NCBI GenBank assembly: GCA_963707395.1
Contig: CAVPPQ010000002.1
Location: 195,474 to 259,473 of the forward strand
DNA from: an uncultured Chloroflexia bacterium
GTDB lineage: Bacteria > Chloroflexota > Limnocylindria > Limnocylindrales > CSP1-4
Direction of reading: 5' to 3'
DNA: 64,000 nucleotides
Shown: one piece after another, positions 3,642 through 57,208 of the stretch
Numbering within the stretch: position 1 is the first letter of the stretch
How the letters are laid out: every line of letters begins with the position of its first letter
Program-made: the position numbers and the translations under genes
Notes under the pieces: model-generated
What the model saw: the letters and a program-made list of their open reading frames with translations, nothing else
The model's database searches: none
Told to the model about the DNA's origin: nothing

Positions 3642-3723
3642 CCTTTACATGCCGGCCACGGCGTCCCATCATCACCCGACGCGCGGGCACCCCCGCCCGC
3701 GGGCACGACACGGAGGTCAAGAC

Positions 3724-4038: not shown

Positions 4039-4127
4039 GAGCGGCGCATGCCGAACGCGCGCACGGTCCTGACGCTTGCGCAGCGCGATCCCTGACCGCT
4101 TCCGAGCCCCCACGAGGAGAAGCCAGC

Positions 4128-5573: not shown

Positions 5574-5590
5574 GCTCAGCGAGCCAACAG

Positions 5591-7095: not shown

Positions 7096-7244
7096 GACGC
7101 GCAGGCTACGACAGCGACGGTGACGACGCTGTGAACGCGGCCGGCCGAGCGTGGCCGGCGGCTGCCACCGAGGGCCGGCAACCGGCGTTGTCCATGATGA
7201 AACTCTCTTGACCTCCGCGTAGCGAGGAGGACAATCGCGTTGCC

Positions 7245-9852: not shown

Positions 9853-9895
9853 TCGCGAACGACGTTCGAGTGGACGTCACACAGGAGGACAGGGA

Positions 9896-11188: not shown

Positions 11189-11239
11189 AGCGTGGGGGCC
11201 GCGTCTCGCCTGATGAGGTGCGGCTCCACGACCTCGATG

Positions 11240-11266
11240 CCGGGGTGGTGCTGGCCGCCATCCCGG
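11240..11266 (+). promoter_or_regulatory. intercistronic stem-loop (9-bp stem CCGGGGTGG/CCATCCCGG) between the SBP and permease genes
   Basis: Near-perfect inverted repeat 52 nt after the SBP stop. A common position for mRNA-stabilising or partial-terminator hairpins in ABC operons. Confidence 0.25.
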
Positions 11267-11343
11267 CATCGGCACCTCACGCGCGGAATACCATCTGGCT
11301 CAGGAGATATGGGGACCGTCGGACCGCACACCGAGATGAGCGC

Positions 11344-33457: not shown

Positions 33458-33509
33458 TCATCGCGCTTCGATGCCCGGCCCGCGGGGCCGGAGATCAGCC
33501 CGTGAGGGT

Positions 33510-34061
33510 TCAGTCGGCCTCGTTGCCCGGTTGGAGCTCAGTGGCCTCGCGCTTCGGCAGCACCATGCGCTCGCGGTCGATGACGTAGGTCCAGGGCAGG
33601 CCGGAGTTCTTCCAGCCGTTCTTCATGCGCATCCCGTCGAAGACGCTGTCGGGGTCCTTGACCTGGCCGCCCTCCATGCCGTCGACGATGTTCCAGGCGT
33701 TCGTGTAGCCGTTCTTGGCCAGCAGGTTGATGGCCATCGCGCTGCGGCCGCCCGAGCGGCAGGAGACGAGCAGGGTGTCGTCTGGCTTCGCCCACGCCTG
33801 GACCGCGGGCAGGAACCCGGGGTTGAGGTCCCAGTGGAAGCCCTGCTTCTCGGCATCCCATTCGAAGGACTGGAAGGCGAGCGGGATGTTGGTGGCCATC
33901 GGCGCGTGGCCCACGAAGACGTACTCCTCGGGCGTGCGGACGTCGAGGATGCGCACGCCCTCGGGGTCCGCCTGCCAGCGGTCAAACGCCTCCCGGGCGG
34001 TGAGGTACAGGCCCAGGCTGGTCAGCCGCTCCTGGGCGAGGGTGGGGGGGTCCACGGTCAT
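33510..34061 (-). CDS. rhodanese-domain sulfurtransferase
   Basis: Active-site loop CRSGGRS. Confidence 0.8.
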   Translation of the reverse strand: MTVDPPTLAQERLTSLGLYLTAREAFDRWQADPEGVRILDVRTPEEYVFVGHAPMATNIPLAFQSFEWDAEKQGFHWDLNPGFLPAVQAWAKPDDTLLVSCRSGGRSAMAINLLAKNGYTNAWNIVDGMEGGQVKDPDSVFDGMRMKNGWKNSGLPWTYVIDRERMVLPKREATELQPGNEAD

Positions 34062-34130
34062 CGCGATCTCCTGTCCAGTCGTCGGGCCCGCGAAGGCGGA
34101 CCCGACGTGAGAGGTGGTGGTTCGTGACGG

Positions 34131-35309
34131 CTACCCGAGCCGGGTGCCCTCGACCTCGAGCCCGCCCCCTTCTGGCAGCTTGCTCCAGCTACGCCGTGCC
34201 CACTCCTCCTTGAGGACCTCCTCGGCCGCCTTCTCCAGGAACTCGGGCCTCGCCCAGGCAGCCACGTCGAAGTCGTTCTTGATGTAGCCGTGGCTGAACA
34301 TGAAGTCCTTGCCGATCTCGACGCACGCCAGGTTGCGGGCGCTCAGGCTCGGCACCATGTCGACGTCCTTGATGCCCTGGTAGGTGTCCTCGGCGTCGAG
34401 GTAGAACGTCTGGCGGTTGAGGATCTCGCCGGCGGCGCGCTTGTTGCGATTGGCCCAGAGGCCGACCTTGATCATGGCCTTCATGTAGGCGATGACCAGC
34501 TCGGGATGTTCCTCGGCCATGACGTCGGTGCAGGTGATGACAGCCGGCGTGTTGGCGACCTGGATCCGCCAGTCCGAGCGCTTCGACAGGTCCTCGATCA
34601 TGGCGATCTTGCCAGTCGCTTCCTGGAGATGCTGGAAGACCTTGCTCTGAGTGTAGATGGCATCGACGACGCCACCAAGCAGCGCCTTCTCGAGCGGGCG
34701 GAAGGCGTAGTCGTGCTTGTGGTCGCGGCGCATCCACAGCTCCGACGGGTTGTTCATCGTGACCCGGAGCATCTCGGGCTTGTCGTACCAGTCGTCCGGG
34801 TAGGGGAACTCGACGAGCTCGATGTCATCCATCGTCATGTCGTTGAGCATGAGCATGGACTCGATGCCCATGTGCTCCTGGATCCGCCACCAGTCGTTCT
34901 TGATGGTGTTCAGGCTCTTGCTGATGCCGATCTTCCTGCCCTTGAGGTCCTGCATCCGGAAGATCCGGTCGTCAGCGCGGACCGCCATGCAGCCGCCCTC
35001 GTGCACCCACGTCGCCCCGAGCAGCACGGTGCGGCGGAGGTCGGCGTTGACGTGGATCGGCGGGTAAAGCCCCCCGAAGCGGATCAGGTTGTCGAGGTTG
35101 TGGATGTAGTGCGGGTACCAGTTGTTCTCCGGAGCGTGGCGGAAGTAGGCGTACTCGACGCCGATCTTCTTGAACTCCTCACGGCACCACCCCAGCTCTT
35201 GGTCCACGTTGTTGGCGGACACCATGGGGCAGTTGGTGAACCAGACCTCGTTCCAGTCCAGGGGCACGGTCGTGGAGACACGCTTCGGCGCCTGGTTCTC
35301 GTTGGTCAT
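34131..35309 (-). CDS. cytoplasmic SsuA/THI5/DszB-fold protein; DszB (2-hydroxybiphenyl-2-sulfinate desulfinase)-like
   Basis: No signal peptide. ATG after GGAGGAGG. Blocks TNCPM, RFGGLYPPIH and GCMAVRADDRIFRMQDLKGRKIGISKS match my recollection of DszB blocks SNCPV, RFGGEIPPLL and GFFVRDDSPITAAADLAGRRIGVSAS. Confidence 0.55.
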   Translation of the reverse strand: MTNENQAPKRVSTTVPLDWNEVWFTNCPMVSANNVDQELGWCREEFKKIGVEYAYFRHAPENNWYPHYIHNLDNLIRFGGLYPPIHVNADLRRTVLLGATWVHEGGCMAVRADDRIFRMQDLKGRKIGISKSLNTIKNDWWRIQEHMGIESMLMLNDMTMDDIELVEFPYPDDWYDKPEMLRVTMNNPSELWMRRDHKHDYAFRPLEKALLGGVVDAIYTQSKVFQHLQEATGKIAMIEDLSKRSDWRIQVANTPAVITCTDVMAEEHPELVIAYMKAMIKVGLWANRNKRAAGEILNRQTFYLDAEDTYQGIKDVDMVPSLSARNLACVEIGKDFMFSHGYIKNDFDVAAWARPEFLEKAAEEVLKEEWARRSWSKLPEGGGLEVEGTRLG

Positions 35310-35491
35310 GGGGGCTTCCTCCTCCGGTGCTCCGGTCGGGCGAACGCGCGACGGCGCGTGACGGTCACGAACATCGAGCCTCGGCCACGATGACGGCTGC
35401 GAGTTGACCACCATCGACCTCGCGCCGCATCCTCCGCGGCGGTGGAGCCACGACGAGGACGAGGTGCCGCGCTCGGGCTAGTCTGCTGACG

Positions 35492-45024: not shown

Positions 45025-45471
45025 ATGGACGACCAGGGATTCATGAAGATCGCCATCGAGGAGGCCGCCCGCGGGCTCTCGGAAGGCGGGGTGCCCGTCG
45101 GCGCGGCTCTCGTGGCCGACGGCAAGGTCCTGGGCTCAGGCCACAACCGGCGCGTCCAGCAGGGCAGCGCCATCCGCCACGGCGAGACGGACTGCCTGGA
45201 GAACATCGGGCGGCTGCACGCCTCGGTCTATCGGCGGGCCACGATGTACACGACGCTGTCACCCTGCGACATGTGCACGGGCGCCATCCTGCTGTACGGG
45301 ATCCCGCGCGTCGTCGTGGGCGAGAACGAGACGTTCATGGGTGGCGAAGGTCACCTGCGCTCGCGGGGCGTGGAGGTGGTGAACCTCGATTCGGCCGACT
45401 GCAAGGCGCTCATGGCCGAGTTCATCGCTCGCTACCCGGATATCTGGAATGAGGACATCGGGCAGGAGTGA
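45025..45471 (+). CDS. cytosine deaminase, Fcy1-like (CDA-fold zinc deaminase)
   Basis: HGE…SPCDMCTGAI zinc motifs. Overall very similar to my recollection of yeast Fcy1, including the YTTLSPCDMCTGAI and GIPR(V/C)VVGEN blocks. Confidence 0.8.
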   Translation: MDDQGFMKIAIEEAARGLSEGGVPVGAALVADGKVLGSGHNRRVQQGSAIRHGETDCLENIGRLHASVYRRATMYTTLSPCDMCTGAILLYGIPRVVVGENETFMGGEGHLRSRGVEVVNLDSADCKALMAEFIARYPDIWNEDIGQE

Positions 45472-45531
45472 CGCGCCGCCGCCCCCCGCGCCGTCCGGGT
45501 CAGCCGAGCCGGGCCGAGGCTGTGGGCCGGC

Positions 45532-46023
45532 CTACCCCTCCTCGGTTCGGTCCAGCGCGGCCTGGATCTGCGCCTCGGCCTCCGCGTCCAGGGTGGTCTG
45601 GTAGACCTTGCCCTTGTACGGCTCCAGGGCGCCGACCACGGCGGACGCATTGCCGGTGCCGAGCACGAAGAGGGCGGACGTGCCCGCGGTCAGGTCGCGG
45701 GTGACATCCTCGACGAGCTTCTTGTCGACGTTGTGGTGCAACGAGCGGCCGATGACCCCGCCGATGGCAGCTCCGATGGCGAGACCGGCCACGGGGAAGA
45801 AGACCAGTCCAAGCAGGAGGCCCAGCGCACCGCCGACCACGGCTCCCCCGGCCGTGGTGCGGTCGAAGCCGTGGTGGACGTGGACCTTGCCATCGGCGTC
45901 CTTCTCGACCACCGCCACGTCGTCGATCTGCGCGCCGTGGGCGCTCTGCAGCGACTTGAGCCGTTCACAGGCCTGCCCGGCGCTCTCGCGGTCCTCGAAC
46001 GTGATGACCAGCAGTTGACTCAT
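45532..46023 (-). CDS. DUF1269 family membrane protein (soluble N-domain plus glycine-zipper TM segment)
   Basis: TAGGAVVGGALGLLLGLVFFPVAGLAIGAAIGGVIG GxxxG-rich segment. Confidence 0.7.
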   Translation of the reverse strand: MSQLLVITFEDRESAGQACERLKSLQSAHGAQIDDVAVVEKDADGKVHVHHGFDRTTAGGAVVGGALGLLLGLVFFPVAGLAIGAAIGGVIGRSLHHNVDKKLVEDVTRDLTAGTSALFVLGTGNASAVVGALEPYKGKVYQTTLDAEAEAQIQAALDRTEEG

Positions 46024-46146
46024 GGAGGCGCTCCTTTCTGACGCAGGCCTCGAGTGTATCGCCGCACGCCCTCCTGCGGCTCACGACCGCGCCTTCCGGA
46101 GCGACGTTCGACCGAACACTTGCCGTTCGCCACGCGGGCGGTGACG

Positions 46147-46548
46147 TCACGTCCGTTCCAGGACGACCTCGTTGACGGCGCCCTCGACGATCGTCCAGGC
46201 GCGCACCTCGGGCGGCTCGCCCAGGAAGGAGCAGAGCACGTAGAGCGCGTCGGGGTAGGCCGCCAGGCCGACGTCGGTGGCCGAGGGCCGTGGCGGCGAG
46301 GCGACGTGGGAGTGGACGATGGCCCAGATCACCTCGTCCGCGTCGTCGATCTCGAGCATGACGCGCAGCTGCTCGTCGGGGTCCATGAGATAGCGATAGG
46401 GAGAGGCAGCCGCGTTGCGCATGCCCACGAAACGCGTCGGGACGCCGCCGTCCTCGGGGGTCCGGTCGGAGACGAGGAGTCCGCAGCCCTCGTTGGGCAG
46501 GGCGTCCCGCAGCCAGTCGACGAGCTCGTCGCGGATGCGGGGCGACAT
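46147..46548 (-). CDS. mec: JAMM/MPN+ metalloprotease, Mec+-like (CysO C-terminal processing and cysteine release)
   Basis: JAMM motif E…HSHVASPPRPSATD; Mec-like N-terminus (RIRDELVDWLRDALPNEGCG). Start set at the internal ATG; the ORF could extend upstream to 46746. Confidence 0.7.
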   Translation of the reverse strand: MSPRIRDELVDWLRDALPNEGCGLLVSDRTPEDGGVPTRFVGMRNAAASPYRYLMDPDEQLRVMLEIDDADEVIWAIVHSHVASPPRPSATDVGLAAYPDALYVLCSFLGEPPEVRAWTIVEGAVNEVVLERT

Positions 46549-46866
46549 GGCGGCCGAGGCCGGCGTCCACGGCGGGCCGGCGCCGCGGCCGACGGCACCC
46601 CAGTCGGCCAGGTGGCGTTCCTCCGCGACCGCGCCCAGGTCGGCCGCCCGTTGCCAGGCCGCGACTCCGGGGACGGAGGCATCGCCCGTGACCGCCGGCT
46701 CGTGAGCCTCGGAGCGGATCGGAGACGCGCCGGCGCCGGAGGCCACGCCCGTGCCAGGACCCTGGCCGGTGCCGAGGATCCTCGCGGGTGCCGGGATCCT
46801 CGCCGGTGCTGGGGTCCTCGCGGGTGCTGGGGTCCTCGCCAGAGGTCGGGCCCCGGTCGCTGTCGC

Positions 46867-47886
46867 TCACCACAGGTTCAGGCTGTCCACGACATCCTCG
46901 TCGGCGTCGAGATCACGCGTCCAGATGTCCTCGCTGAGGTACTTCCAGCCACCGTCGGCGAGGAGCGCGACGATCGTGCCGCGCTCCATCTCGCGAGCCA
47001 GCTGCTTGGCCGCCACCATGACCGCGCCACAGGAGACGCCGGCGAAGATGCCCTCGCGGTCGGTGAGCTCGCGCAGCGCCTCGATGGCCTGCGCGTTGGA
47101 AACGAGGAGCCGGCCGTCCAGCACGGAGGCATCGAAGATCTCCGGGATGAAGCCCTCCTCCAGCGAGCGCAGGCCCTGGACGCGCTCGCCGGGCAGCGGC
47201 TCCGCGGCATAGATGCGCACGTCGGGGTTGTGCCGCCGCAACCGCCGGCCCACGCCCATGAGCGTGCCGCCGGTGCCCAAACCAGCCACGAAGGCGTCCA
47301 CCTCCGGACAGTCGGCGATGATCTCCTCCGCGGTGGTCTCCTCGTGCGCCCGCGGATTGGCTTCGTTGCCGTACTGGTAGGGCATCACGAAGCGCGCGTC
47401 CCTGGCCACGAGGTGCTTGGCCAGCGCGATCGCCCCATTTGAGCCCAGGTGGCCCGGCGAGTCGATGACCTCCGCGCCGAAGAGCGCCAGCAACTGGCGC
47501 CGTTCCATGGTCACGTTGTCCGGCACCACGACGGCCACGCGATAGCCCTTGCGGCGCGCGATCATGGCCAGCCCGATGCCGGTATTGCCGCTGGTGGGCT
47601 CGATGATGATGGAGTCCGGCCGCAGGCGGCCGGCGCGCTCCAGGTCCTCGATGAGGTACTTGGCGACGCGGTCCTTGACCGACCCCGTCGGGTTCATGAA
47701 CTCCAGCTTGGCGTAGAGCCGCACGTTGGGATTGGGGCAGACGTTGGGGACCTCCACCAGCGGCGTGAAGCCGATGGCGTCCACGATGGACGGGAAGCGG
47801 CCCCCGTGTCGCGCGTTGCCGCCGTGGGCATGCGGCCGCAGAGCGTCGACCTCGACCCCGGACGGCCGCTCCGACGTCGCCGTCAC
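46867..47886 (-). CDS. cysM: cysteine synthase, CysM-type (CysO-thiocarboxylate-dependent O-phosphoserine sulfhydrylase-like)
   Basis: PLP lysine region NPTGSVKDR, and GTGGT glycine loop. GTG start. Confidence 0.85.
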   Translation of the reverse strand: MTATSERPSGVEVDALRPHAHGGNARHGGRFPSIVDAIGFTPLVEVPNVCPNPNVRLYAKLEFMNPTGSVKDRVAKYLIEDLERAGRLRPDSIIIEPTSGNTGIGLAMIARRKGYRVAVVVPDNVTMERRQLLALFGAEVIDSPGHLGSNGAIALAKHLVARDARFVMPYQYGNEANPRAHEETTAEEIIADCPEVDAFVAGLGTGGTLMGVGRRLRRHNPDVRIYAAEPLPGERVQGLRSLEEGFIPEIFDASVLDGRLLVSNAQAIEALRELTDREGIFAGVSCGAVMVAAKQLAREMERGTIVALLADGGWKYLSEDIWTRDLDADEDVVDSLNLW

Positions 47887-47898
47887 GAGCGTGGCGCC

Positions 47899-48174
47899 CT
47901 ACCGGCCTCCGGCCATGGCCGGCAGAAGGATGACCTCGTCGGCAGCGGCGACCGGGGTCTCCAGGCCCTGCTCGTAGCGCACGTCGCGGCCGTTGACGTA
48001 GACGTTGACGAAGCGGTTCAGCTCGCCGTCGGCGGAGAAGACCTGCTCGCGGAGGCCGGGGTGCAGCTCCAGCAGCGACGTGAGGGCCTCACCGACGGTC
48101 GCGCCACTCACCTCGACGCGCTTCTGGTTGCCGGCCTGTGCGCGCAGCACGGGCGGGATGCGGACCGCGGTCAT
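47899..48174 (-). CDS. cysO: sulfur-carrier protein CysO (MoaD/ThiS family) with one residue (Arg) after the Gly-Gly
   Basis: 91 aa. The C-terminal two-thirds (RFVNVYVNGRDVRY…VILLPAMAGG-R) closely match my recollection of the M. tuberculosis CysO C-terminus (RFVNIYVNDEDVRF…SVTILPAVAGG). ATGA overlap with the upstream E1 gene. Confidence 0.8.
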   Translation of the reverse strand: MTAVRIPPVLRAQAGNQKRVEVSGATVGEALTSLLELHPGLREQVFSADGELNRFVNVYVNGRDVRYEQGLETPVAAADEVILLPAMAGGR

Positions 48175-49358
48175 GCACTCGCCTCCATCGTGGTCGGAAG
48201 GTTCAGGGGGAAGGTGAAGACGCCATCGGCGGCCTCGGGCGCCGGCAGCTCGCCATCGCCGCAGGCGGGGCAATGCGGGTCGCGCCGCAGCTGCAGCTCG
48301 CTGAAGGAGCCGTCCAGGGCGTCGTAGATGAGCAGGCGCCCGGCCAGCGAGTCGCCGATGGCGAGGAGGACCTTGATGCCTTCCGTGGCCTGCAGGAGGC
48401 CCATGACGCCGGGCACGACACCCAGGACGCCGGCCACCGAACAGCCCGGCGCCAGCTCGGGGGGCGGCGGGGTCGGGTAGAGGCAGCGATAGCAGGGCCC
48501 CTCGTGAGGCGTGAAGACGGTCAGCTGGCCCTCGAAGCGGAAGACGGAGGCGTGCACGACAGGGATGCCGGCGCGCACGGCAGCATCGTTGAGCGTGTAG
48601 CGCGTCTCGAAGGTATCGGTGCCATCGAAGATGAGGTCGTACCCGGCGATGAGACGCTCCACGTTGTCCGGTCCGAGCATCTCCTCGAAGGTCTCGACGC
48701 GAACGTCCGGGTTGAGCTCCCGGATGGTCTGCGCGGCCGACTCCGTCTTCTTCATGCCCACCCGGTCGGCGCGGTGGACGACCTGGCGCTGCAGGTTGGA
48801 GACGTCCACGACGTCGAAGTCGACGATACCGATGGTGCCCACGCCGGCTGCGGCCAGGTAGAGCATGGCCGGAGAGCCCAGGCCGCCGGCGCCGATGAAG
48901 AGCACCCGTGAGCCGAGGAGCTTGGCCTGGCCGGCCGCGCCGACCTCCGGGATGAGCAGGTGGCGCGAGTAGCGCTGCTTCTGCTCGCTGGTCAGCAGCA
49001 CGGGTTGCGTGAAGGGGCGACCCTCCGACTTCCAGGCCTGGAAGCCGCCGCTCATGGAGGCCACATCGGTGTAGCCCATGGCCTGCAGCGTCTGGGCCGC
49101 GAAGAGCGAGCGGATGCCGCCCGCGCAGTAGAGGATGACCGGCACCTCGCGGTCCGGGGCGAGGCCCTCGATCTCCTGTTCGATGAACGATTTCGAGACG
49201 TGATGGGCGCCGCCGATGTGCCCTTGCTCCCACTCGCTGACCTCGCGGACGTCGACCAGGACGGCGCCTTCCCGCGTGGCGCGCTCCGTCTGTGCCGTGG
49301 TCACCTCGCGAACGGCGGCGCGGGCATCGCGCAGCAGGTCGCGGTACGACTTGCTCAT
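48171..49358 (-). CDS. moeZ: MoeZ/MoeB-like E1 sulfurtransferase with inverted domain order (N-terminal rhodanese, C-terminal ThiF/E1 domain with CxxC…CxxC)
   Basis: Residues about 1-125 are a rhodanese domain (active-site CAGGIRS). E1 Rossmann motif LFIGAGGLGS follows. Zinc cysteines CYRC…CPAC. Start set at MSKSYRDLL. Confidence 0.8.
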   Translation of the reverse strand: MSKSYRDLLRDARAAVREVTTAQTERATREGAVLVDVREVSEWEQGHIGGAHHVSKSFIEQEIEGLAPDREVPVILYCAGGIRSLFAAQTLQAMGYTDVASMSGGFQAWKSEGRPFTQPVLLTSEQKQRYSRHLLIPEVGAAGQAKLLGSRVLFIGAGGLGSPAMLYLAAAGVGTIGIVDFDVVDVSNLQRQVVHRADRVGMKKTESAAQTIRELNPDVRVETFEEMLGPDNVERLIAGYDLIFDGTDTFETRYTLNDAAVRAGIPVVHASVFRFEGQLTVFTPHEGPCYRCLYPTPPPPELAPGCSVAGVLGVVPGVMGLLQATEGIKVLLAIGDSLAGRLLIYDALDGSFSELQLRRDPHCPACGDGELPAPEAADGVFTFPLNLPTTMEASA

Positions 49359-49801
49359 GTCGGTGCGACCGCGTCGGTCGCGGAACCCCCGTGGGTCGTG
49401 CCTGCGCCACCCGCCGCGGAGGCCGGGGCGTCCGGGCGGCCGTGGAGGGCGTGGTGCAGCGTGTTCAGGGAGAGGAGCGCGCACTTCAGCCGCGCCGGGC
49501 TGATCTCGATGCCCAGCAGGTCCAGGACGTCCTGATCGGTCAGGGCCTCGACGTCGGCCAACGGGCGGCCCTTGACCTCGTCGGTGAGCAGCGAGGCGGA
49601 GGCCTGGCTGATGGCGCAGCCGCGGCCGCTGAAGGCCACGTCGCGGACGGTGCCGTCCGCGCCGAGCGCCAGCATCATCGTGATGCGGTCGCCACAGAGC
49701 GGGTTGTTGCCCTCGTAGACGGCATCAGGCGCGTCCAGCGTGCCGAAGTTGTGGGGCTGTCGATAGTGCTCGAGGATCTCGTCGCGGTAGAGGTCGTCCA
49801 T
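49355..49801 (-). CDS. sufU: SufU/IscU-like Fe-S scaffold / sulfur acceptor
   Basis: Conserved cysteines LCGD…GRGCAISQASAS…LKC. ATGA overlap with moeZ. Confidence 0.8.
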   Translation of the reverse strand: MDDLYRDEILEHYRQPHNFGTLDAPDAVYEGNNPLCGDRITMMLALGADGTVRDVAFSGRGCAISQASASLLTDEVKGRPLADVEALTDQDVLDLLGIEISPARLKCALLSLNTLHHALHGRPDAPASAAGGAGTTHGGSATDAVAPT

Positions 49802-49839
49802 GGGAGTGTGCAGGGTACCCGATGCGGTGGGGTGGATGG

Positions 49840-51144
49840 CTAGGAGATGCTGCCGCCGCTGAGCGGGATGGCCGGCACAGGAGACACGGGCGGGCGGCCA
49901 AAGATGGCCTGCACCTTGCGCAGGCCAGCGGCCAGGCGATCGACGTCGTCACGGCCGCTGTACACGCTGAACGAGGCACGGTTGGTGGCTGGCAGCCCCA
50001 GGCGCTCGTGGAGCGGCTGCGTGCAGTGGTGCCCGGCACGGATGGCCACCGCCTCGCGGTCGAGCAGCGTGGCGACATCGTGGGGATGCGCCTCCGGCAG
50101 GGTGAAGGTGACGATGCCGGCCCGCTCGGCTGCCGTGCGCGGCCCGTGGATGCGGATGCCCGGCACCTCGCGCGGCAGCATCTCCAGCGCGTACGCGGTG
50201 AGGGCCTCCTCGTGCACGGCGACCCGCTCCATGCCGATGGCGGAGAGGTAGTCGACGGCCGCCCCCAGGCCGATGGCGGCCCCGATGTCGGGCGTGCCGG
50301 CCTCGAACTTGTGGGGGATCTCGTTGAACGTGGTGTGCCGCAGGTGCACAGAGCTGATCATCTCGCCGCCGCTCATGAAGGGCGGCATGGCCTCCAGGAT
50401 CTCGGCTCGCGCCCACAGGGCACCCGAGCCGGGGGGGCCCAGGACCTTGTGGCCGGAGAAGACGTAGAAGTCGGCGCCCAGGTCCGCCACGTCCACCGGC
50501 AGGTGCGGCACGGCCTGGGCGCCGTCCACCAGCACCAGTGCGCCGGCGTCGTGCGCCTGGCGAACCATCTCGCGGACGGGCAGCAGCGTGCCCAAGCCAT
50601 TGGACTTGTGGGTGAAGGCCACCAGCCGCGGACGCGTGCGCAGCAGGACCTCCCAGGCGTCCATGTTGAGGTGTCCCTCGGCGTCGAAGGGCACGAACTC
50701 CAGGTCGGCGTCCTTCTCCTGGGCCAGCAGCTGCCAGGGCACCAGGTTGGCGTGGTGCTCCAGCTCCGTCAGGACGATGGTGTCCGCCCGGCCGATGTTG
50801 CCCCGCCCCCAGGCGTAGGCCACCAGGTTGATGGCCTCCGTGGCGTTGCGCACGAAGACGATCTCGCGAGCATCGGGTGCGCCCAGGAAGCGGGCCACCT
50901 TCTGGCGGGCCCCCTCGTAGGCCGCCGTCGCCTCCTCGCCGATGGTGTAGATGCCGCGGTGCACGTTGGCGCTGTAGCGGCTGTGGTAAGCGTCCACCGC
51001 CTCGATGACCGAGCGCGGCTTGAGGGCCGTGGCAGCGCTGTCCAGGTAGGCCAGTCGCCGCCCACCGAAGTCGCGCTCGAAGATCGGAAAGTCGCGGCGG
51101 ACGACGTCCGGGTCGAGCGGGGGTTGGTCGTGCACGGGTGCCAT
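49840..51144 (-). CDS. sufS: cysteine desulfurase, SufS (class II)
   Basis: PLP lysine FSGHKVLGP, active-site Cys region RAGHHCTQPL. 434 aa. Confidence 0.9.
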   Translation of the reverse strand: MAPVHDQPPLDPDVVRRDFPIFERDFGGRRLAYLDSAATALKPRSVIEAVDAYHSRYSANVHRGIYTIGEEATAAYEGARQKVARFLGAPDAREIVFVRNATEAINLVAYAWGRGNIGRADTIVLTELEHHANLVPWQLLAQEKDADLEFVPFDAEGHLNMDAWEVLLRTRPRLVAFTHKSNGLGTLLPVREMVRQAHDAGALVLVDGAQAVPHLPVDVADLGADFYVFSGHKVLGPPGSGALWARAEILEAMPPFMSGGEMISSVHLRHTTFNEIPHKFEAGTPDIGAAIGLGAAVDYLSAIGMERVAVHEEALTAYALEMLPREVPGIRIHGPRTAAERAGIVTFTLPEAHPHDVATLLDREAVAIRAGHHCTQPLHERLGLPATNRASFSVYSGRDDVDRLAAGLRKVQAIFGRPPVSPVPAIPLSGGSIS

Positions 51145-51173
51145 GTCGGGTTCGGGTCGAGTGCCCGGCGCCG

Positions 51174-52142
51174 TCAGCCCGCCTGGACCTCGAGGTGCTC
51201 CACCTCGGGGTCCTCGTCGAGTGCGTCGATGTCGAAGCCGGCCTCGCGCAGGATGGGCGCGTAACCCTCGTCCTCCAGCCGCAGGGCCAGGTCCTTGCCG
51301 CCCGAGGCGATGATGCGGCCGTGCGCCAGGACGTGGACGAGGTCAGGCTGGATGTAGTTGAGCAGGCGCTGGTAGTGGGTGATGAGGAGCACGCCCAGGT
51401 CCGGGCTGAGCTGGGCGTTGACGCCCTCGGCCACGATGCGCAGCGCATCGATGTCGAGACCCGAATCGGTCTCGTCGAGGATCGCGAACTCCGGCTCCAG
51501 GATGGCCATCTGGAGCATCTCCAGGCGCTTCTTCTCGCCGCCGGAGAAGCCCTCGTTGACGTACCGACCAGCGAACGAGTCGTCCAGCTTGAGTAGCGCC
51601 ATCTTGTCGCGCAGGAGTCGGCGGAAGTCGGCCATCTTGATGCCGCCCCGGGTCGGGTCGGACGGATCGATCTCGCCGTCGCCGCCCTCCAGCCCCCGTC
51701 GGCGCGCATTGAGCGCGGTGCGCAGGAAGGAGGCCACGGAGAGCCCGGGCACGGCCGTGGGGTACTGGAAGGCCAGGAAGAGGCCCAGGCGGGCGCGCTT
51801 GTCCGGGCTGAGCTGGAGGATGTCGTGGCCCTTCCAGATGACCTCGCCCTGCGTCACCTGGTAGGCGGGGTGGCCCATGAGGGCGTAGGCGAGGGTCGTC
51901 TTGCCCGAGCCGTTGCGGCCCATGATGGCGTGGACCTCGCCCTTGCGGACCTCCAGGTCGATGCCGCGCAGGATCTCGCGCGTGGGGTCAGCCGAGGGGA
52001 CGACGTGCAGATCCCGGATGAGGAGGACGCGGTCGGCATCGGTGGCCGAAGCGCGCTCGGCAGCTGAGGCGCTCTCGGCGGCAGTGGCGGGGCTGGTGCT
52101 GGCCTGGGGATCTCCGGGCAGCGTGGCAGTGTCGCGGTTCAT
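51174..52142 (-). CDS. sufC: Fe-S cluster assembly ATPase SufC (with ~50-aa N-terminal extension)
   Basis: Walker A GRNGSGKTT, signature FSGGEKKR, Walker B ILDETDSGLD, H-loop ITHYQR; close to canonical SufC. Confidence 0.85.
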   Translation of the reverse strand: MNRDTATLPGDPQASTSPATAAESASAAERASATDADRVLLIRDLHVVPSADPTREILRGIDLEVRKGEVHAIMGRNGSGKTTLAYALMGHPAYQVTQGEVIWKGHDILQLSPDKRARLGLFLAFQYPTAVPGLSVASFLRTALNARRRGLEGGDGEIDPSDPTRGGIKMADFRRLLRDKMALLKLDDSFAGRYVNEGFSGGEKKRLEMLQMAILEPEFAILDETDSGLDIDALRIVAEGVNAQLSPDLGVLLITHYQRLLNYIQPDLVHVLAHGRIIASGGKDLALRLEDEGYAPILREAGFDIDALDEDPEVEHLEVQAG

Positions 52143-52708
52143 GGCTGGACGATGGGCTCCTTGGCGGGACGGTCGGGGAGTGGTCGGACGGTCACGAGGA
52201 CCGCGTCATCTTGACCCGGCCGAGTGTCGCGGCCGGACGTCGGCGGGTGCGAGGGGTGCCCAGCTCCGGGCAGGGTGAGCTCTGCCAGGGAGGTGGACTC
52301 CAGCGCCTGCACGACGGCGTCGCGGACGCGACGCCAGAGCAGATCGACCGTGCAGAACCCGCCCCGGGAGCAGAGTTCGCCGGGGTGCGCGTCCCCGCTG
52401 GCACAGATCATCGGCGCGATGGGACCCTCGAGCGCGGTCACGACCTCCGCCATGTGGATGCGCGAGGGGTGCCGCGCGAGCTCGTAGCCGCCGTGCGCGC
52501 CGCGGGTGCTGGTGACCAAGCCGGCCTCGCGCAGGCTGACCACCAGCTGCTCCAGGTAGGGGCGCGGCAAGTCCTCGTGCTCAGCCATCTCCGAAAGGCT
52601 GACGGGGCCGCTGCCGTGGTGGCGCGCCAGCTCCACCATGAGGCGCACGCCGTACTCCCCACGCGTGGAGAAGTGGAGGGCTCCCGATGGCGGGGCGGTG
52701 GTGCGCAC
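52139..52708 (-). CDS. Rrf2 family transcriptional regulator (IscR/SufR-like) with C-terminal extension
   Basis: HTH STRGEYGVRLMVELARHH…VSLSEMAEHEDLPRPYLEQL. GTG start. ATGA overlap with sufC. Confidence 0.8.
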   Translation of the reverse strand: MRTTAPPSGALHFSTRGEYGVRLMVELARHHGSGPVSLSEMAEHEDLPRPYLEQLVVSLREAGLVTSTRGAHGGYELARHPSRIHMAEVVTALEGPIAPMICASGDAHPGELCSRGGFCTVDLLWRRVRDAVVQALESTSLAELTLPGAGHPSHPPTSGRDTRPGQDDAVLVTVRPLPDRPAKEPIVQP

Positions 52709-52760
52709 GAAGGTCTCCTGGGCCGGGCCGATGCGTCGCCGCGACCTGCGGCGCCGGCGA

Positions 52761-52787
52761 ATAATCCCGACTGATTTCGTCAGGATT
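52761..52787 (-). promoter_or_regulatory. putative Rrf2/IscR-type operator (imperfect palindrome ATAATCCCGACTGATTTCGTCAGGATT) upstream of the Rrf2-suf-cysO operon
   Basis: About 55 nt upstream of the Rrf2 start. Resembles IscR type-1 box ATASYYGACTRwwwYAGTCRRSTAT. Confidence 0.3.
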
Positions 52788-52867
52788 GAGTCTAGCCCGC
52801 GGGCCGGACCTCGTCAACGTGGGCGCCTGCCGCTGTCACGGACCGGGCACAGCCGGCGCGTGTGTGG

Positions 52868-53398
52868 TCAGCTGGGGCGTTGTGCCCGTTGCGCGACCCT
52901 GATCTCGTGACGACGCGGGGTGCGCCCATCCACGGACGCGCGCAGCACCACCTGCCCCTCCGCGGGGATGGCCACCGGGATGTTGAAGGCCATCGGCACC
53001 AGCATGTCCATGCCGGCCATGCCGGGCGGGCGGCCCGTCGTCAACTTCGCCTCGAAGCCGACCAGGCGCTGCTCGTCCTGCTGCATCTCGACCGCCACCG
53101 TGTGCTCGTCGTCGGTGTGGGCGAACGGGATGCGCACGCCAAGGGCGATGCCCACGATCATGCGGTGCGGGAAGGCGGACGGCTGGATGCGGTCCCAGGC
53201 GGCACCCATGAGGTAGAGCTTGCCGTTGACGACCTCGGCCCGGTCAGCCACCAGGAGATAGTCGATCTCCGGCTTGCGAGCGAAGGTCGCCTCGGCCGCT
53301 TCCAGGGCGCCCTCCAGCCCATCGGCCGCCTGCGGCTCTCCTGGCGCGTCGGGATCGGGTGTCTGCGCGGGGTCGGGTGTCTGCGCGGGATCGGTCAC
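52868..53398 (-). CDS. hypothetical protein (176 aa, acidic Pro/Ala-rich N-terminus)
   Basis: Overlaps upstream DUF4389 gene by 4 nt. No motif recognised. Confidence 0.45.
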   Translation of the reverse strand: MTDPAQTPDPAQTPDPDAPGEPQAADGLEGALEAAEATFARKPEIDYLLVADRAEVVNGKLYLMGAAWDRIQPSAFPHRMIVGIALGVRIPFAHTDDEHTVAVEMQQDEQRLVGFEAKLTTGRPPGMAGMDMLVPMAFNIPVAIPAEGQVVLRASVDGRTPRRHEIRVAQRAQRPS

Positions 53399-54318
53399 AG
53401 TCGCGGGTCGTCCTCTCCGAGCGAGAAGGGCGGGTAGCGGTCGACCATCAGGAGCTGATAGGCGAGGACCCGGAAATACCAGCGGTTGTAGCCGCCGACG
53501 ATGGTGTAGATGACATCCGCCTGGTGGCCCGTGAAGAGGACCGGCACCCAGGTGAACCAGATGAGGAACATGGCCAGGATGTTCAGGAACGAGAGCACGA
53601 TGTAGTGCGGGATGAGGATGATGAAGCGCACCCAGATGCCGATGAGCGGGATGCCCCAGAGGCGGTTGATGCGCACGCCCTCGTCGAAGCGCACCGTGAC
53701 TGGGTGCTCCTCGCCGGAGAGGGAGAAGGGCGGATAGGTCGGTGTCAGCAGCTCAAGGTAGGCCTGCACGCGGACCAACCAGCCCATCAGGCCACCGATC
53801 CAGCGGTAGCCCCAGCCCGGGAAGCGGCCCAGGATGAGCACGGGGATCCAGGTCACGAGGCTGAGCAGAGCGGCCACGATGGCGATGAGCGCCAACAGGA
53901 TGAAGTGCGGGATGAGCAGGATGGTGCGGACGAGGATGCCGACGATCGGGATCCCCCAGAGCCGGTTGATCCGAGCGAGGCGGTCGTACGAGATGTTGAC
54001 CGGGTAGGCGTCAGGGGCAAGGGGGTAGGCCGGGGGCGGCTGCCAGACCGGCTCAGGCGGGAGATAGCCTGGGGGCTGGTAGCCGGGCGGAGGCAGCGGG
54101 TAACCGGGCGGAGGCGGCGGGTAGCCGCCGGCGGGCGGGTAGCCGGGCGGAGGCGGCGGGGCGTAGCCGCCAGGGGGCGGCGGGTAGCCACCAGGGGGCG
54201 GCGGGTAGCCACCAGGCTGGGAGTAGCCCGGGGGCGGCGCCTGCCACGGCGATGGCTGCTGGCCTTCACTCCATCGCGGATCCTGCGGAGTCGCGGGGCC
54301 CTGGGATTCCCACGTCAT
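53395..54318 (-). CDS. DUF4389 domain membrane protein (two tandem DUF4389 repeats) with Pro/Gly/Tyr-rich N-terminal repeat region
   Basis: Two copies of R(I/L)NRLWGIP…IPH(F/Y)I(L/V)L…YPPFSL. N-terminus has (GGYPPPP)n. Confidence 0.7.
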   Translation of the reverse strand: MTWESQGPATPQDPRWSEGQQPSPWQAPPPGYSQPGGYPPPPGGYPPPPGGYAPPPPPGYPPAGGYPPPPPGYPLPPPGYQPPGYLPPEPVWQPPPAYPLAPDAYPVNISYDRLARINRLWGIPIVGILVRTILLIPHFILLALIAIVAALLSLVTWIPVLILGRFPGWGYRWIGGLMGWLVRVQAYLELLTPTYPPFSLSGEEHPVTVRFDEGVRINRLWGIPLIGIWVRFIILIPHYIVLSFLNILAMFLIWFTWVPVLFTGHQADVIYTIVGGYNRWYFRVLAYQLLMVDRYPPFSLGEDDPRL

Positions 54319-54429
54319 GTCACGACCTCGATGTGGTCTGAACGTCCCTCACAGCGTACACGCATCCCGACCCCTCGGACGCGAGCCGGCCGCCGGAGGC
54401 CCGGCGGGACACGGCGGCCTGGACGCGGA

Positions 54430-55209
54430 TCAGCGGCTGCTGCCGAAGATCCGGAGCATGAAGAGGAAGAGGTTGACGAAGTCGAGGTACAGCGTCAGCG
54501 CGCCCAGGACGGTGGCCGAGTCCTTGTTGATGCCCGGGAGGGCGCCATTCTTGAGGCGCTGCACGTCCCAGGCCGTGAGGCCCGTGAAGATGCCCACGCC
54601 CAGGAGGCCGATGAGCAGGCTGGCCATGCTGCTGTCCGCGAAGAAGAAGATCTGCAGGAACATGACCACGATGAGCCCGATGAGGCCCATGAAGAGGATG
54701 CCGCCGAGGCTGGTCAGGTCGCGCTTGGTGACCACGCCGTAGAGCGCCGCGCCGCCGAAGATGCCGGCCGCGCCTGCGAAGGCCGAGACGACGCCGGAGA
54801 TGCCGATGGTGCCGACGTAGGCGAGCACGATGACGCCCAGCGTCAGGCCCATCGTCAAGGCGTAGATGAAGAAGAGGCCCAGGGCCACGATGGGCGAGAT
54901 GCGCGCGATGAGGAAGCTGATGGCCATGACCAGGCCGAGCTGGGCGATGAACAGCAGCAGCCAGAGGTCCTGGACCTGATCCATGAGCTGCTCGTTGCCC
55001 ATCACGAAGGCGGCGGAGACAGCCGACAGCAGCACGCCCACGAACATCCAGACGAAGCTGCCCGTCAGGAAGCCCTCCCGGGGCGCGGTGGCCACGATGG
55101 GCTGGCCTCGCACGAGGCCGGAGGCTGCGGGTGTCCCGGCGCTCACCTGGTTGGAGGGCGACTGGGCGCGGTTCAGGGGATCGATGTCGTTGGCGGGCAC
55201 GGTCCTCAT
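54430..55209 (-). CDS. Bax inhibitor-1/YccA family membrane protein
   Basis: 7-TM, BI-1-like pattern with a charged C-terminus. Confidence 0.75.
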   Translation of the reverse strand: MRTVPANDIDPLNRAQSPSNQVSAGTPAASGLVRGQPIVATAPREGFLTGSFVWMFVGVLLSAVSAAFVMGNEQLMDQVQDLWLLLFIAQLGLVMAISFLIARISPIVALGLFFIYALTMGLTLGVIVLAYVGTIGISGVVSAFAGAAGIFGGAALYGVVTKRDLTSLGGILFMGLIGLIVVMFLQIFFFADSSMASLLIGLLGVGIFTGLTAWDVQRLKNGALPGINKDSATVLGALTLYLDFVNLFLFMLRIFGSSR

Positions 55210-55309
55210 TCCTTTCAGGGGCGCCCGTCACGGGCGTCGTGACTCACAGTCTAGCGAGCGCTCCATGACGAGCCTGCGACACCCAGGCGAGCCCATGACG
55301 CAGGGTGGG

Positions 55310-55954
55310 TCAGGCGGACGTGGACCCGCGCGACGACTCGGCGGCAGCGCCCTCGGCCTGCTCGGCGAGGCGCGCGAGCACCCACAGCAGGTCGGCCAGG
55401 CGGTTGAGGTAGGGCATCAGCCAGGCGCCCGGTACGAGGCGGTCGTGGTCGAGCGCGATGACGCGTCGCTCGGCACGCCGCACCACGGTGCGGCTCACCT
55501 CGAGCGCGGCGGAGAGACGGCTGGCGCCCGGCACGATGAACTCGCGGGGCATCTCCACCGCCTCCTCGGCGGCGCGAAGCCGGTCCTCGAGGGCGATCAG
55601 CATGGCCTCGTCGACGCGGGTCTCGCCATCACGCAGGCGATCCCAGGCATCGGGATTGGTGGCCAGCTCCGCACCGGCCACGAAGAGGTCGCGCTGCAGC
55701 GAGAGGATCGTGTGACCAAGGTCCTCGAGGGCGGACGGCTGCCGGCCTGCGGCACGCATGACGTCCAGCTCAGCCCGGGCCAGGCCAAGGCAGGCCACGG
55801 CTTCGTCGATGGTCCCGTAGGCCTCCGCGCGGGCGTCGTCCTTGGCGATGCGGCCGCCATAGAGCAGGCCCGTCGTGCCATCGTCACCCTTACCCGTGGC
55901 GACGGCGCTGCCCGCGATGCGGACGCGGGACGGTCGCGGGTCGGTGCCGCTCAC
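55310..55954 (-). CDS. ATP:cob(I)alamin adenosyltransferase, PduO-type
   Basis: TGKGDDGTT P-loop-like motif diagnostic of PduO/MMAB. Confidence 0.8.
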   Translation of the reverse strand: MSGTDPRPSRVRIAGSAVATGKGDDGTTGLLYGGRIAKDDARAEAYGTIDEAVACLGLARAELDVMRAAGRQPSALEDLGHTILSLQRDLFVAGAELATNPDAWDRLRDGETRVDEAMLIALEDRLRAAEEAVEMPREFIVPGASRLSAALEVSRTVVRRAERRVIALDHDRLVPGAWLMPYLNRLADLLWVLARLAEQAEGAAAESSRGSTSA

Positions 55955-56304
55955 CAGGTCAGGCCGGCGTCCCGCGGGTCCCAGCGCTCAGCGAGCAGGG
56001 TGACCTTGACGTCGTGGCCCTCGGCCTCCTCGGCTGCCTCCTTGACCTGCTGGATCATGGAACCAGCGTAGGGGCAGAAAGGCGTCGTGAGGATCATCTT
56101 GATCTCGGTCAGCTCGTCGCCAAGGATGACCTGCCTGATGAGCGCCAGCTCCACCACGTTCATGCCGATCTCTGGATCGACCACGGCCCGCAGAGCGTCC
56201 AGGACGGCCAGCTCGCGGGAGCGTGCCACGGGGTCGAAGGCCGGCGCGGCGGAGGGGGCGATGGTCGGGCCGAGGGCGTCCTCGGAAAGCGTCTGGTCGG
56301 ACAT
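55951..56304 (-). CDS. DUF59/MIP18-family Fe-S assembly protein (SufT-like)
   Basis: VVDPEIGMNVVELALI and conserved Cys in TTPFCPY. Confidence 0.7.
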   Translation of the reverse strand: MSDQTLSEDALGPTIAPSAAPAFDPVARSRELAVLDALRAVVDPEIGMNVVELALIRQVILGDELTEIKMILTTPFCPYAGSMIQQVKEAAEEAEGHDVKVTLLAERWDPRDAGLTW

Positions 56305-56360
56305 CGTCGGGCCATCCTACACCGGGCTCCGAAGTGGGCCCTCCAAAGGCAAGTCCCGGG

Positions 56361-56708
56361 CTACGTGTTCGAGGCGGCGCCCTCGGCCGTCAGGGGTGCC
56401 TCGACCATGCCCAGCACAGTCCGCAGGTGGTCCGGCAGCCCGGCGGCGTCAGCGGGCGAGAAGCCCGGCCCCTGGAGGGCCCCGTCCGGCCCCAGCAGAC
56501 CGGCGTAGCGCTCCGGATGCTCGGCGGCATATCGGAAGGCCTCGGCGATGCCGACCCGGCGCAGCTCAGGGTGCTCGGCCAGCATGTCAGCCGGGGTGAG
56601 GCCGTGCACCCGCATCTCCAGCAGGTTGCGCACGGTCAGCCGCGTGCCGTAGCAGAAGGGCTCGCCGTTCATGACCAAGGGGTCCGACTTGACCCACTTG
56701 ATGGTCAT
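56361..56708 (-). CDS. DUF433 domain protein
   Basis: DUF433 core MNGEPFCYGTRLTVRNLLE…G…P. 115 aa. Confidence 0.6.
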   Translation of the reverse strand: MTIKWVKSDPLVMNGEPFCYGTRLTVRNLLEMRVHGLTPADMLAEHPELRRVGIAEAFRYAAEHPERYAGLLGPDGALQGPGFSPADAAGLPDHLRTVLGMVEAPLTAEGAASNT

Positions 56709-57208
56709 CAGACGACCGTGTCGTCGCCGAGGCCGGCGCCCTTCCAGATGAAGCGGACGGCGCGGTGGCCGGCGTGATCGCCCGCCAGTCGGCGGTGGCG
56801 GCGCAGGCAGGTGATCCAGGCCGCCACGGGCGCTCGGATGATCTCTGCGTCCGACGACGGACCGGAGGCCACGGCGGCCTCCTCCAGGCCGCGCAGGAGG
56901 GAGACGACGTCGTTCATGCGCACCTTCCGGCGGCGGTAGCTGGGCACGAGGTCCTCTCCATAGACGACCACGTAGCGATCCTCCCCGGTGGACACCGCCC
57001 GTGCCAACTGCTCGATGTGGCGCTCGTAGTCGCGCAGGAAGCGGCGCAGCATGAGGTCGTCATAGCGGTCGCGCAGCGTGGGGTCCACGCGCAGCGCGGC
57101 TTCCAGCGCCAGGGTCGGCAGGCGTTCCGCGGCGCGCAGGCGCGCCGCGACGGCCGGGTGGCCAGCGCCGTGATCCGAAGGCGGTAGTCCGAGAGCGGGG
57201 TGCGGCAT
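56708..57208 (-). CDS. hypothetical protein (166 aa) cotranscribed with DUF433 gene
   Basis: ATGA overlap with the DUF433 start. Not a recognisable PIN/DUF5615 domain. Confidence 0.4.
   Translation of the reverse strand: MPHPALGLPPSDHGAGHPAVAARLRAAERLPTLALEAALRVDPTLRDRYDDLMLRRFLRDYERHIEQLARAVSTGEDRYVVVYGEDLVPSYRRRKVRMNDVVSLLRGLEEAAVASGPSSDAEIIRAPVAAWITCLRRHRRLAGDHAGHRAVRFIWKGAGLGDDTVV

Follow-up and report, generated by a model that had tools for sequence, protein, structure and literature searches.

A conserved gene cluster joining sufC, sufS and sufU to a CysO-type cysteine module behind a predicted IscR-like Rrf2 regulator in Limnocylindria-like soil Chloroflexota

The window analysed here is a stretch of 64,000 nt (64 kb) from contig CAVPPQ010000002.1 of an uncultured Chloroflexia bacterium (assembly GCA_963707395.1). 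It carries a cluster of eight genes in which an Rrf2-family regulator and the SUF-type iron-sulfur (Fe-S) assembly proteins SufC, SufS and SufU are followed by a rhodanese-ThiF E1-like enzyme (E1), the sulfur carrier CysO, the sulfhydrylase CysM and a JAMM protease (Table 1). The window has a G+C content of about 70% and its raw lists of open reading frames (ORFs) were crowded with spurious frames; the real frames were picked by third-position G+C. All eight assignments are backed by Pfam and NCBIfam, with the Rrf2, ThiS, PALP and Prok-JAB models above their gathering scores, and gene calls on a near-identical contig from ENA yielded the same eight genes, which confirms the content, strand and order given in a first-pass annotation made from the sequence alone. 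Regarding the junctions, the overlapping stop and start codons described there hold for about half of them: overlaps of 4 nt are found between Rrf2 and SufC, SufU and E1, and E1 and CysO, whereas SufC and SufS are separated by 29 nt, SufS and SufU by 38 nt, and CysO and CysM by 12 nt.

The junction between CysM and the JAMM gene is a 4-nt overlap in the ENA relative and is disturbed in the window by a 1-bp insertion near position 46775 (minus strand; compared with ERZ25039462:contig_12036), which lies in a repetitive, low-complexity stretch of the GEDPSTREDP type before the JAMM domain. The JAMM protein is called with 240 aa and overlaps the CysM stop codon in the ENA contig; the frame in the window opens first at a GTG at 46746, and the catalytic domain begins near an alternative ATG at 46548. 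The insertion is either a long-read sequencing error or a sign that the N-terminal extension of the JAMM protein is non-coding.

Among the homologues of E1, the closest bear the names Chloroflexota or Candidatus Limnocylindrales, and the best species-level genome matches of E1 are soil Chloroflexota assemblies, several of which are labelled Limnocylindrales (class Limnocylindria). The Actinomycetota frame in which the cluster had first been placed is therefore wrong for the window; the second half of the cluster does occur in Actinomycetota of the Gaiellales/Thermoleophilia type. Neither SufS nor a 590-aa protein encoded close to the right end of the window had a match in exact-sequence look-ups, and the look-up of P0001 gave the ENA contig only. 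An Rfam scan of the window returned no RNA family, and no intrinsic terminator was found 3' of the JAMM gene, the fold of 46020-46150 being no better than that of shuffled sequence (z = -0.43).

Table 1. Features of the eight-gene cluster, its promoter region and a second sulfur-related gene group (positions in the window).
Feature	Length	Position	Strand	Support
Rrf2-family regulator, IscR-like (predicted)	189 aa	52139-52708	minus	PF02082 127 bits; TIGR00738 117 (cutoff 73)
SufC ATPase	322 aa as called	51174-52142	minus	TIGR01978 318.5 (cutoff 212.8)
SufS type II cysteine desulfurase	434 aa	49840-51144	minus	TIGR01979 550.5 (cutoff 475.1); PF00266 461 bits
SufU-like persulfide acceptor	148 aa	49355-49801	minus	TIGR01994 109 (cutoff 92.5)
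Rhodanese-ThiF E1-like adenylyltransferase	395 aa	48171-49358	minus	NF006444 546 (cutoff 449); PF00581 and PF00899
CysO-like ThiS/MoaD-fold sulfur carrier	91 aa	47899-48174	minus	PF02597 55 bits
CysM-type pyridoxal phosphate (PLP) sulfhydrylase	339 aa	46867-47886	minus	PF00291 234 bits
JAMM/Prok-JAB metalloprotease, Mec-like	199 aa as called	46147-46746	minus	PF14464 66 bits (cutoff 25)
Promoter-like site TTGACG-17 nt-TAGACT		52789-52817	minus	single sigma-70-like match on either strand, 45400-56800
Palindromic operator (predicted) ATCCTGAC-gaaatca-GTCGGGAT		52764-52786	minus	starts three bases downstream of the -10 box
NMT1/THI5-like binding protein		34131-35414	minus	
Single-domain rhodanese		33510-34061	minus	
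SulP/STAS sulfate permease		31514-33457	minus	

SufC, which as called includes a low-complexity N-terminal extension of about 39 aa, is 52% identical to Escherichia coli SufC (tblastn), and the Walker A, ABC signature, Walker B and H-motif are intact in its translation. Its identity to the nearest relatives (81-83%) is on a par with that of its neighbours SufS (79-81%) and E1 (79-80%), which, together with the kept catalytic motifs, argues for a retained canonical role. SufS is 46% identical to E. coli SufS (tblastn), and with the SufU-like protein it provides the type II desulfurase with dedicated acceptor that is expected of a SUF system. Two other identities of SufS were rejected, CsdA (TIGR03392, 355 against a cutoff of 493.6) and encapsulin-cargo SufS (NF041166, 532 against a cutoff of 800, with the desulfurase part alone aligning). 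TIGR01994 aligns to SufU over positions 2-88 only, out of 137. The SufU-typical motifs NPLCGD, GCAIS and RLKC are kept, and so are the Cys/Asp ligand motifs. The closest structures are those of Thermus thermophilus (2QQ4) and of Bacillus subtilis SufU, and the alignment has a gap of about 15-18 residues before the third Cys. This short SufU, without the Bacillus-type insertion, is common to all Chloroflexota homologues including those of canonical sufCBDSU operons, and is therefore a lineage trait and not an adaptation to the eight-gene cluster.

The local absence of sufB and sufD, on which the first-pass annotation had remarked, was seen in each of the searches made. E. coli SufB and SufD gave no match in the 64-kb window (tblastn, best E = 0.56), Pfam scans of 30 further window ORFs returned no SufB/D family, and 29 related loci had neither gene within 10 kb. 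PF01458 was also absent from the genes called over some 17 kb beyond the left end of the window, as read from a 99%-identical relative, so that no sufB or sufD was found across about 81 kb around the cluster in the window lineage; a leftward walk from the window via a VanZ homologue, prompted by a Rieske gene that borders locus L206 and hinted at suf surroundings, met genes for sulfate assimilation and a nickel superoxide dismutase, but no sufB or sufD.

The carrier half of the cluster begins with E1, in which the rhodanese domain is N-terminal (PF00581 at residues 71-153, PF00899 at residues 172-407, numbered on the longer ORF). Its translation shows the rhodanese loop CAGGIRS and two CxxC pairs (CYRC and CPAC), the pairs lying in the ThiF domain. 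By its score above the NF006444 cutoff, E1 is assigned to the PRK08762 type. It had been described as MoeZ-like, a name that was dropped because NF005902 scores 364 against a cutoff of 647 and because the order is not ThiF-then-rhodanese; TcdA was rejected as well (NF011696, 70.6 against a cutoff of 304). No solved structure was found with the rhodanese-then-ThiF order of E1.

The best structure match of the CysO-like carrier is Mycobacterium tuberculosis CysO (3DWG_C, 47% identity), and that of CysM among solved structures is M. tuberculosis CysM (3DWG/3DKI, 301 bits, 52% identity). Arg220 of the O-phosphoserine-specific M. tuberculosis enzyme is aligned with an Arg in the CysM of the window; with TIGR01136 the protein scores 332.6, slightly under the cutoff of 344. 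By its likeness to the M. tuberculosis enzyme and by this Arg, CysM is a predicted O-phosphoserine sulfhydrylase. The JAMM motif H-x-H-x7-S-x2-D (HSHVASPPRPSATD) is present in the translation of the protease, the nearest structures of which are uncharacterised JAB proteins and archaeal JAMM1. The features that mark the CysO pathway, a Gly-Gly carrier, a CysM type with Arg220 and a JAMM (Mec) hydrolase, were thus all found, and the initial description of this part as Mycobacterium-like is upheld. The carrier ends in AMAGG-R, one residue past Gly-Gly, and among its relatives many stop exactly at Gly-Gly and others have 1-7 extra residues; for this reason the JAMM protease is probably also the maturation enzyme of CysO, trimming the extra C-terminal Arg.

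Relatives keep the TAGACT -10 box at an unchanged position upstream of the regulator gene. The operator behind it has the consensus ATCCYGAC-N7-GTCGGRAT and is unique in the window, with a chance expectation of 0.11 at no more than 2 mismatches. Its 25-mer AATCCTGACGAAATCAGTCGGGATT and the type-1 motif of E. coli IscR, ATASYYGACTRWWWYAGTCRRSTAT, have 20 of 25 positions in common (hand count); through the type-1 motif, [2Fe-2S]-IscR represses iscRSUA (PMC3899308). The regulator itself has three Cys (C-x11-C-x5-C) that are conserved in all cluster loci and in the loci L087 and L071. Of the models scored, it passed that of the Rrf2 superfamily alone. It failed the equivalog models of IscR (TIGR02010, 91 against a cutoff of 207; NF008110, 75 against 275) and fell below the cutoff of the Xanthomonas-type SUF regulator; CymR (NF047409) was the top-scoring named model, yet at 123 it too stayed under its cutoff of 195. 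Three Cys, though differently spaced, and a promoter of its own that bears a type-1-like operator make the regulator IscR-like in predicted mechanism, but not a member of IscR. Control of the Fe-S type by Rrf2, as had been suggested, is thus supported by the conserved Cys and by an IscR type-1-like operator behind the sole promoter-like site. No terminator-like site was found on the coding strand inside the cluster. The observations that had been named as able to overturn an operon, sufB or sufD nearby, an internal coding-strand terminator-like site or a further promoter-like site, were therefore not made. One promoter-like site with its operator and a coding strand free of internal terminator-like sites support a composite operon.

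For comparison, 80 loci around E1 relatives were mapped with the window proteins and with E. coli SufB/D. SufU lies directly upstream of E1 in 29 loci (29 species-level genomes, E1 identity 62-80%), and this recurrence shows that the arrangement is not a chance juxtaposition. The full eight-gene order is contiguous in 10-12 of the 29 loci. In 13 of them an insert of 1-6 kb separates sufS from sufU, with SufU remaining beside E1, and the inserts include opposite-strand genes (L017, for example, has genes for a luciferase-like oxidoreductase and for an unknown protein), so that the two halves need not be co-transcribed. Four loci (L021, L023, L024 and L035) hold a SufU-E1-JAMM core (about 9400-11900 in each) that is not followed by CysO or CysM, which suggests that E1 may there serve carrier proteins encoded elsewhere.

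The operator was found, with at most 3 mismatches, upstream of Rrf2 in every related locus holding Rrf2. All 13 split loci have a second operator in front of sufU, within 160 nt of the gene (at about 50 bp). Contiguous loci have no operator upstream of sufU (at least 6 mismatches), with L046 as the one exception. Owing to the second copy in front of sufU, both halves stay one regulon in the split loci. This duplication of the operator where the operon breaks is the strongest single result of the analysis. The conserved features are co-regulation via duplicated operators and the adjacency of SufU and E1. The 'dedicated relay' of the first-pass annotation is not supported by the comparison, since the carrier module is free of suf genes in 25 loci and sufS and sufU are set apart by opposite-strand genes in 13 relatives.

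Outside the Limnocylindria-type loci, the metagenome locus L087 carries the same operator and a related Rrf2 before a canonical SufC-SufB-SufD-SufS set, from which it follows that the regulator belongs to SUF operons. sufB and sufD were probably part of the operon in its ancestral form, and the Limnocylindria state would be a derived one that arose by their removal. In a scan of metagenomes with the operator pattern, suf genes stood beside the operator in 4 among the 80 matches listed (L087, L128, L153 and L158); the rest of the listed matches were mostly chance-like, and no Limnocylindria sufBD locus behind the operator was found among them.

The carrier module E1-CysO-CysM(-JAMM) stands in a locus devoid of suf genes in the 25 cases mentioned, which are mostly of Gaiellales/Thermoleophilia. 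Three loci of other Chloroflexota (L059, L079 and L083) show a canonical sufC-sufB-sufD-(sufS)-sufU-Rieske-DUF59 operon with CysO-E1-CysM 1-2 kb further on. In two of these (L083, 8694-13281; L059, 8563-13241) CysO-E1-CysM is flanked by a tandem-rhodanese gene directly upstream and by a gene for an Fe/Mn superoxide dismutase directly downstream, which is another link of the carrier module with a persulfide donor and with oxidative stress. The third, L079, holds at 8092-9573 a 493-aa ORF with ThiS, rhodanese and ThiF domains, in which the carrier forms the N-terminal part of a fusion with E1; the Gly-Gly end of the fused carrier would need proteolytic release. A 476-aa protein among the E1 homologues (P0100) resembles this fusion. 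In L071, of Solirubrobacterales (Actinomycetota), Rrf2-SufC-SufS-SufU at 3522-7174 and a divergent E1-CysO pair at 9959-11518 are about 3.4 kb apart; this unit is without sufB and sufD, so a suf unit of that kind is not confined to Chloroflexota. The Limnocylindria type, the L059/L079/L083 type and L071 are three architectures in which suf genes lie near the carrier module; both modules exist alone, yet the neighbourhood recurs.

Several neighbouring genes were recorded. A DUF59/FeS_assembly_P (SufT-like) gene and a gene for a PduO-type cob(I)alamin adenosyltransferase, overlapping by 4 nt, lie at 55310-56304 (minus strand), 3 kb upstream of Rrf2, and this pair is kept near the cluster in L006, L008, L009, L024-L026 and L048. 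As DUF59 follows SufU in canonical Chloroflexota suf operons, the DUF59 gene may have been left over from the ancestral operon. Overlapping genes for a DUF4389 protein (a proline-rich membrane protein) and a DUF6941 protein lie directly upstream of the operon promoter (52868-54318, minus strand); of the relatives, only the closest (L006, L008 and L128) keep them. A second sulfur-related trio (31514-35414, minus strand; Table 1) lies about 12 kb from the cluster. In the 99%-identical relative, sulfate assimilation genes were seen about 10-17 kb to the left of the window (L207, 1-7400), namely those for a CysN-like GTPase, a CysD-like PAPS_reduct protein, a TauE exporter and a sulfate ABC transporter (TOBE) with its binding protein; they adjoin genes for a nickel superoxide dismutase and its maturation peptidase.

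The reading that is favoured, at a little better than an even chance, is that of a stress-responsive composite operon that raises Fe-S assembly and an oxidation-tolerant supply of cysteine together, under the IscR-like Rrf2 regulator. The predicted operators that they share show the two halves to be coupled in their regulation. By homology to IscR, cluster-bound Rrf2 would occupy the operator behind the -10 box and repress transcription, and a low Fe-S supply (oxidative stress, iron limitation or high demand) would derepress the operon. In the first module SufS would draw sulfur from cysteine as a persulfide and pass it to SufU, and SufC would presumably partner SufB and SufD encoded elsewhere in the genome. 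In the second, E1 would adenylate the C-terminus of CysO and a persulfide on its rhodanese Cys would turn the adenylate into the thiocarboxylate; CysM would then join the CysO thiocarboxylate and O-phosphoserine to give a CysO-cysteine adduct, from which the JAMM protease would release cysteine by hydrolysis. A branch that consumes cysteine for Fe-S assembly and a branch that produces it would thus be switched on together, and a hand-off of persulfide from SufU to the rhodanese of E1 is plausible as an extra link. Regarding the sulfur for the second branch, the sulfate uptake and activation genes (sulfate ABC transporter, CysD and CysN), about 15 kb to the left of the window in the relative, indicate that sulfur other than that of cysteine is available for cysteine synthesis.

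Several points weigh against the composite operon. Cluster binding and repression by the regulator, as well as all of the enzyme activities, are taken from homology. The 4-nt overlap of sufU and E1 is kept in the window lineage, and SufU stays with E1 in every split. The pairing of SufU and E1 is also found without CysO and CysM, which suggests a link closer than co-regulation alone. Finally, three architectures place suf genes less than 4 kb from the carrier module, which is more than one historical accident gives.

The main alternative, a refined form of the first-pass model, is a direct relay, in which the SufS persulfide would pass via SufU to the rhodanese Cys of E1 and on to the CysO thiocarboxylate, with SufS and SufU as the physiological donor; it is judged possible, at clearly less than an even chance. 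E1 would then be a general activator of carriers, for cysteine and possibly for molybdopterin, thiamin or thionucleosides. In favour of the relay, SufU always lies directly upstream of E1 in the 29 loci, with a 4-nt overlap in the window, and remains beside E1 in split clusters; the SufU-E1-JAMM cores, where the carriers would be encoded elsewhere, fit it too. The tandem rhodanese in the slot upstream of CysO-E1 in L083 and L059 likewise points to a recurrent adjoining persulfide carrier. Against the relay stands the ATP-consuming futile cycle in which cysteine sulfur would be put back into cysteine, a caveat that was raised at the outset and still stands. E1-CysO-CysM-JAMM moreover manages without adjacent suf genes in the 25 loci and in M. 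tuberculosis. The junction of SufS and SufU is one of the few that do not overlap, and insertions there may merely be tolerated. A fusion of SufU and E1 was not found; an apparent one in L009 was rejected as an artefact of ORF extraction, a stop codon separating the two genes. Donation by SufU to a rhodanese has, to our knowledge, no biochemical precedent. The literature, on the other hand, favours the relay: transfer from a desulfurase to a rhodanese and on to a carrier thiocarboxylate is established in other systems (IscS/YnjE/MoeB and NFS1/MOCS3; PMC3227635), the source of the CysO-thiocarboxylate sulfur is called unknown in the MoeZR paper (PMC3227635), and there is a precedent for SufS serving a non-Fe-S pathway (PMC10219651). 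The further-reaching claim that SufS-SufU is the physiological donor to the E1 rhodanese, as a hard-wired route to CysM and to other consumers of thiocarboxylate, is put forward tentatively and is considered rather unlikely.

That the juxtaposition is meaningless, two unrelated operons having become adjacent by chance, is improbable. Both modules do occur separately in other lineages, but the 29 species-level genomes, with E1 identities of 62-80%, have kept the arrangement, split loci carry a second operator, and the other architectures have independently set suf genes beside the same carrier module.

It is very improbable that SufC, SufS and SufU act without any SufB or SufD, the scaffold having been lost and SufC having taken a new partner or SufU having become the scaffold. 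The absence of sufB and sufD within 10 kb in the 29 loci and in about 81 kb of the window lineage would agree with such a loss, as would the Rrf2-SufC-SufS-SufU unit of L071 and the IscU-like length of SufU. SufC is, however, typical and well conserved, passing its equivalog cutoff at 52% identity to the E. coli protein, and we know of no function of SufC outside the SufB/SufD complex. The short SufU is found within canonical sufCBDSU operons and so is no replacement of SufB, and suf genes scattered over separate loci are known in other bacteria.

A ubiquitin-like conjugation system of the SAMP or TtuB kind, made up of E1, carrier and JAMM protease, is hardly credible: the carrier does pass the SAMP1 model (NF041918, 73.9 bits against a cutoff of 60), but the matches of E1 to UbaA (NF047750, 333 against 450) and of the protease to desampylase (NF041370, 64.7 against 130) are sub-threshold, the carrier and the PLP enzyme are nearest to M. 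tuberculosis CysO and CysM, and most loci show a tight linkage of CysM with CysO.

The significance of the cluster lies in the sulfur donor of the CysO/MoeZ pathway, called unknown as noted above (PMC3227635), because soil Chloroflexota place SufS and SufU directly before the E1 of a carrier protein. Both halves are under one predicted Fe-S-sensing repressor, also where the locus breaks apart, and this in an abundant uncultured class of soil Chloroflexota. A specific hypothesis, persulfide transfer from SufU to the rhodanese of E1, is thereby given, as well as a defined candidate operator-regulator pair for an uncultured lineage. If true, the relay would be a concrete answer to where systems of the CysO/MoeZ type get their sulfur, and would give the SufU acceptor a role outside Fe-S assembly; if the link is purely regulatory, it is a neat but ordinary co-regulation of Fe-S assembly with cysteine supply. 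Regarding the reorganisation of SUF operons in evolution, the cluster shows that sufC can stay with sufS and sufU after sufB and sufD leave the operon. The SufC-SufS-SufU trio would gain interest if the lineage lacked SufB and SufD entirely.

Among known systems, the M. tuberculosis pathway has Mec (Rv1334), CysO (Rv1335) and CysM (Rv1336) together and MoeZ (Rv3206c) elsewhere. The cluster resembles it in the ThiS-fold carrier, the CysM with Arg220, the HxH...S..D motif of the JAMM protease and the rhodanese-bearing E1. It differs in that E1 is inside the cluster and has an N-terminal rhodanese, in the extra Arg of CysO, in the order E1-CysO-CysM-JAMM and in the regulon shared with suf genes. 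Gram-positive SUF operons are exemplified by sufCDSUB of Bacillus and by the actinobacterial sufR-sufBDCSU-sufT. SufC, a type II SufS and a SufU-type acceptor in the order C...S-U are shared with these, as is a DUF59/SufT-like gene, here 3 kb upstream; sufB and sufD are missing from the locus, SufU is without the insertion of about 15-18 residues, and an Rrf2 regulator stands in place of SufR.

As in E. coli IscR/iscRSUA, a predicted autoregulated Rrf2 gene with three Cys is the first gene of an Fe-S operon, and the operators share YYGAC-N7-GTCRR half-sites overlapping the promoter. Unlike IscR, the regulator fails the equivalog (91 against 207), its Cys are spaced C-x11-C-x5-C instead of C-x5-C-x5-C, and its targets are of the SUF and not the ISC type, with a cysteine pathway in addition. 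Type II cysteine desulfurases and their persulfide acceptors are linked, genetically or functionally, to a ThiF-family E1 or to a rhodanese-assisted carrier in CsdA-CsdE-TcdA(CsdL) of E. coli and in TtuB/TtuC/TtuD of Thermus, which is fed by IscS/SufS. From CsdA-CsdE-TcdA the cluster is set apart by unmatched equivalog cutoffs, by SufU as acceptor instead of the SufE-like CsdE, and by a product module for CysM-based cysteine synthesis. The L059/L079/L083 loci are alike in that suf genes, with the same short SufU, neighbour a CysO/E1/CysM module; they differ in having sufB and sufD, in placing CysO before E1 (fused to it in L079), and in that no JAMM gene and no such Rrf2 operator were detected. 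Literature searches found no description of a combined suf-cysO operon, in line with the initial view that this wiring is not a described system. Every part of the cluster comes from a known family, and the arrangement is a new, conserved combination of known parts.

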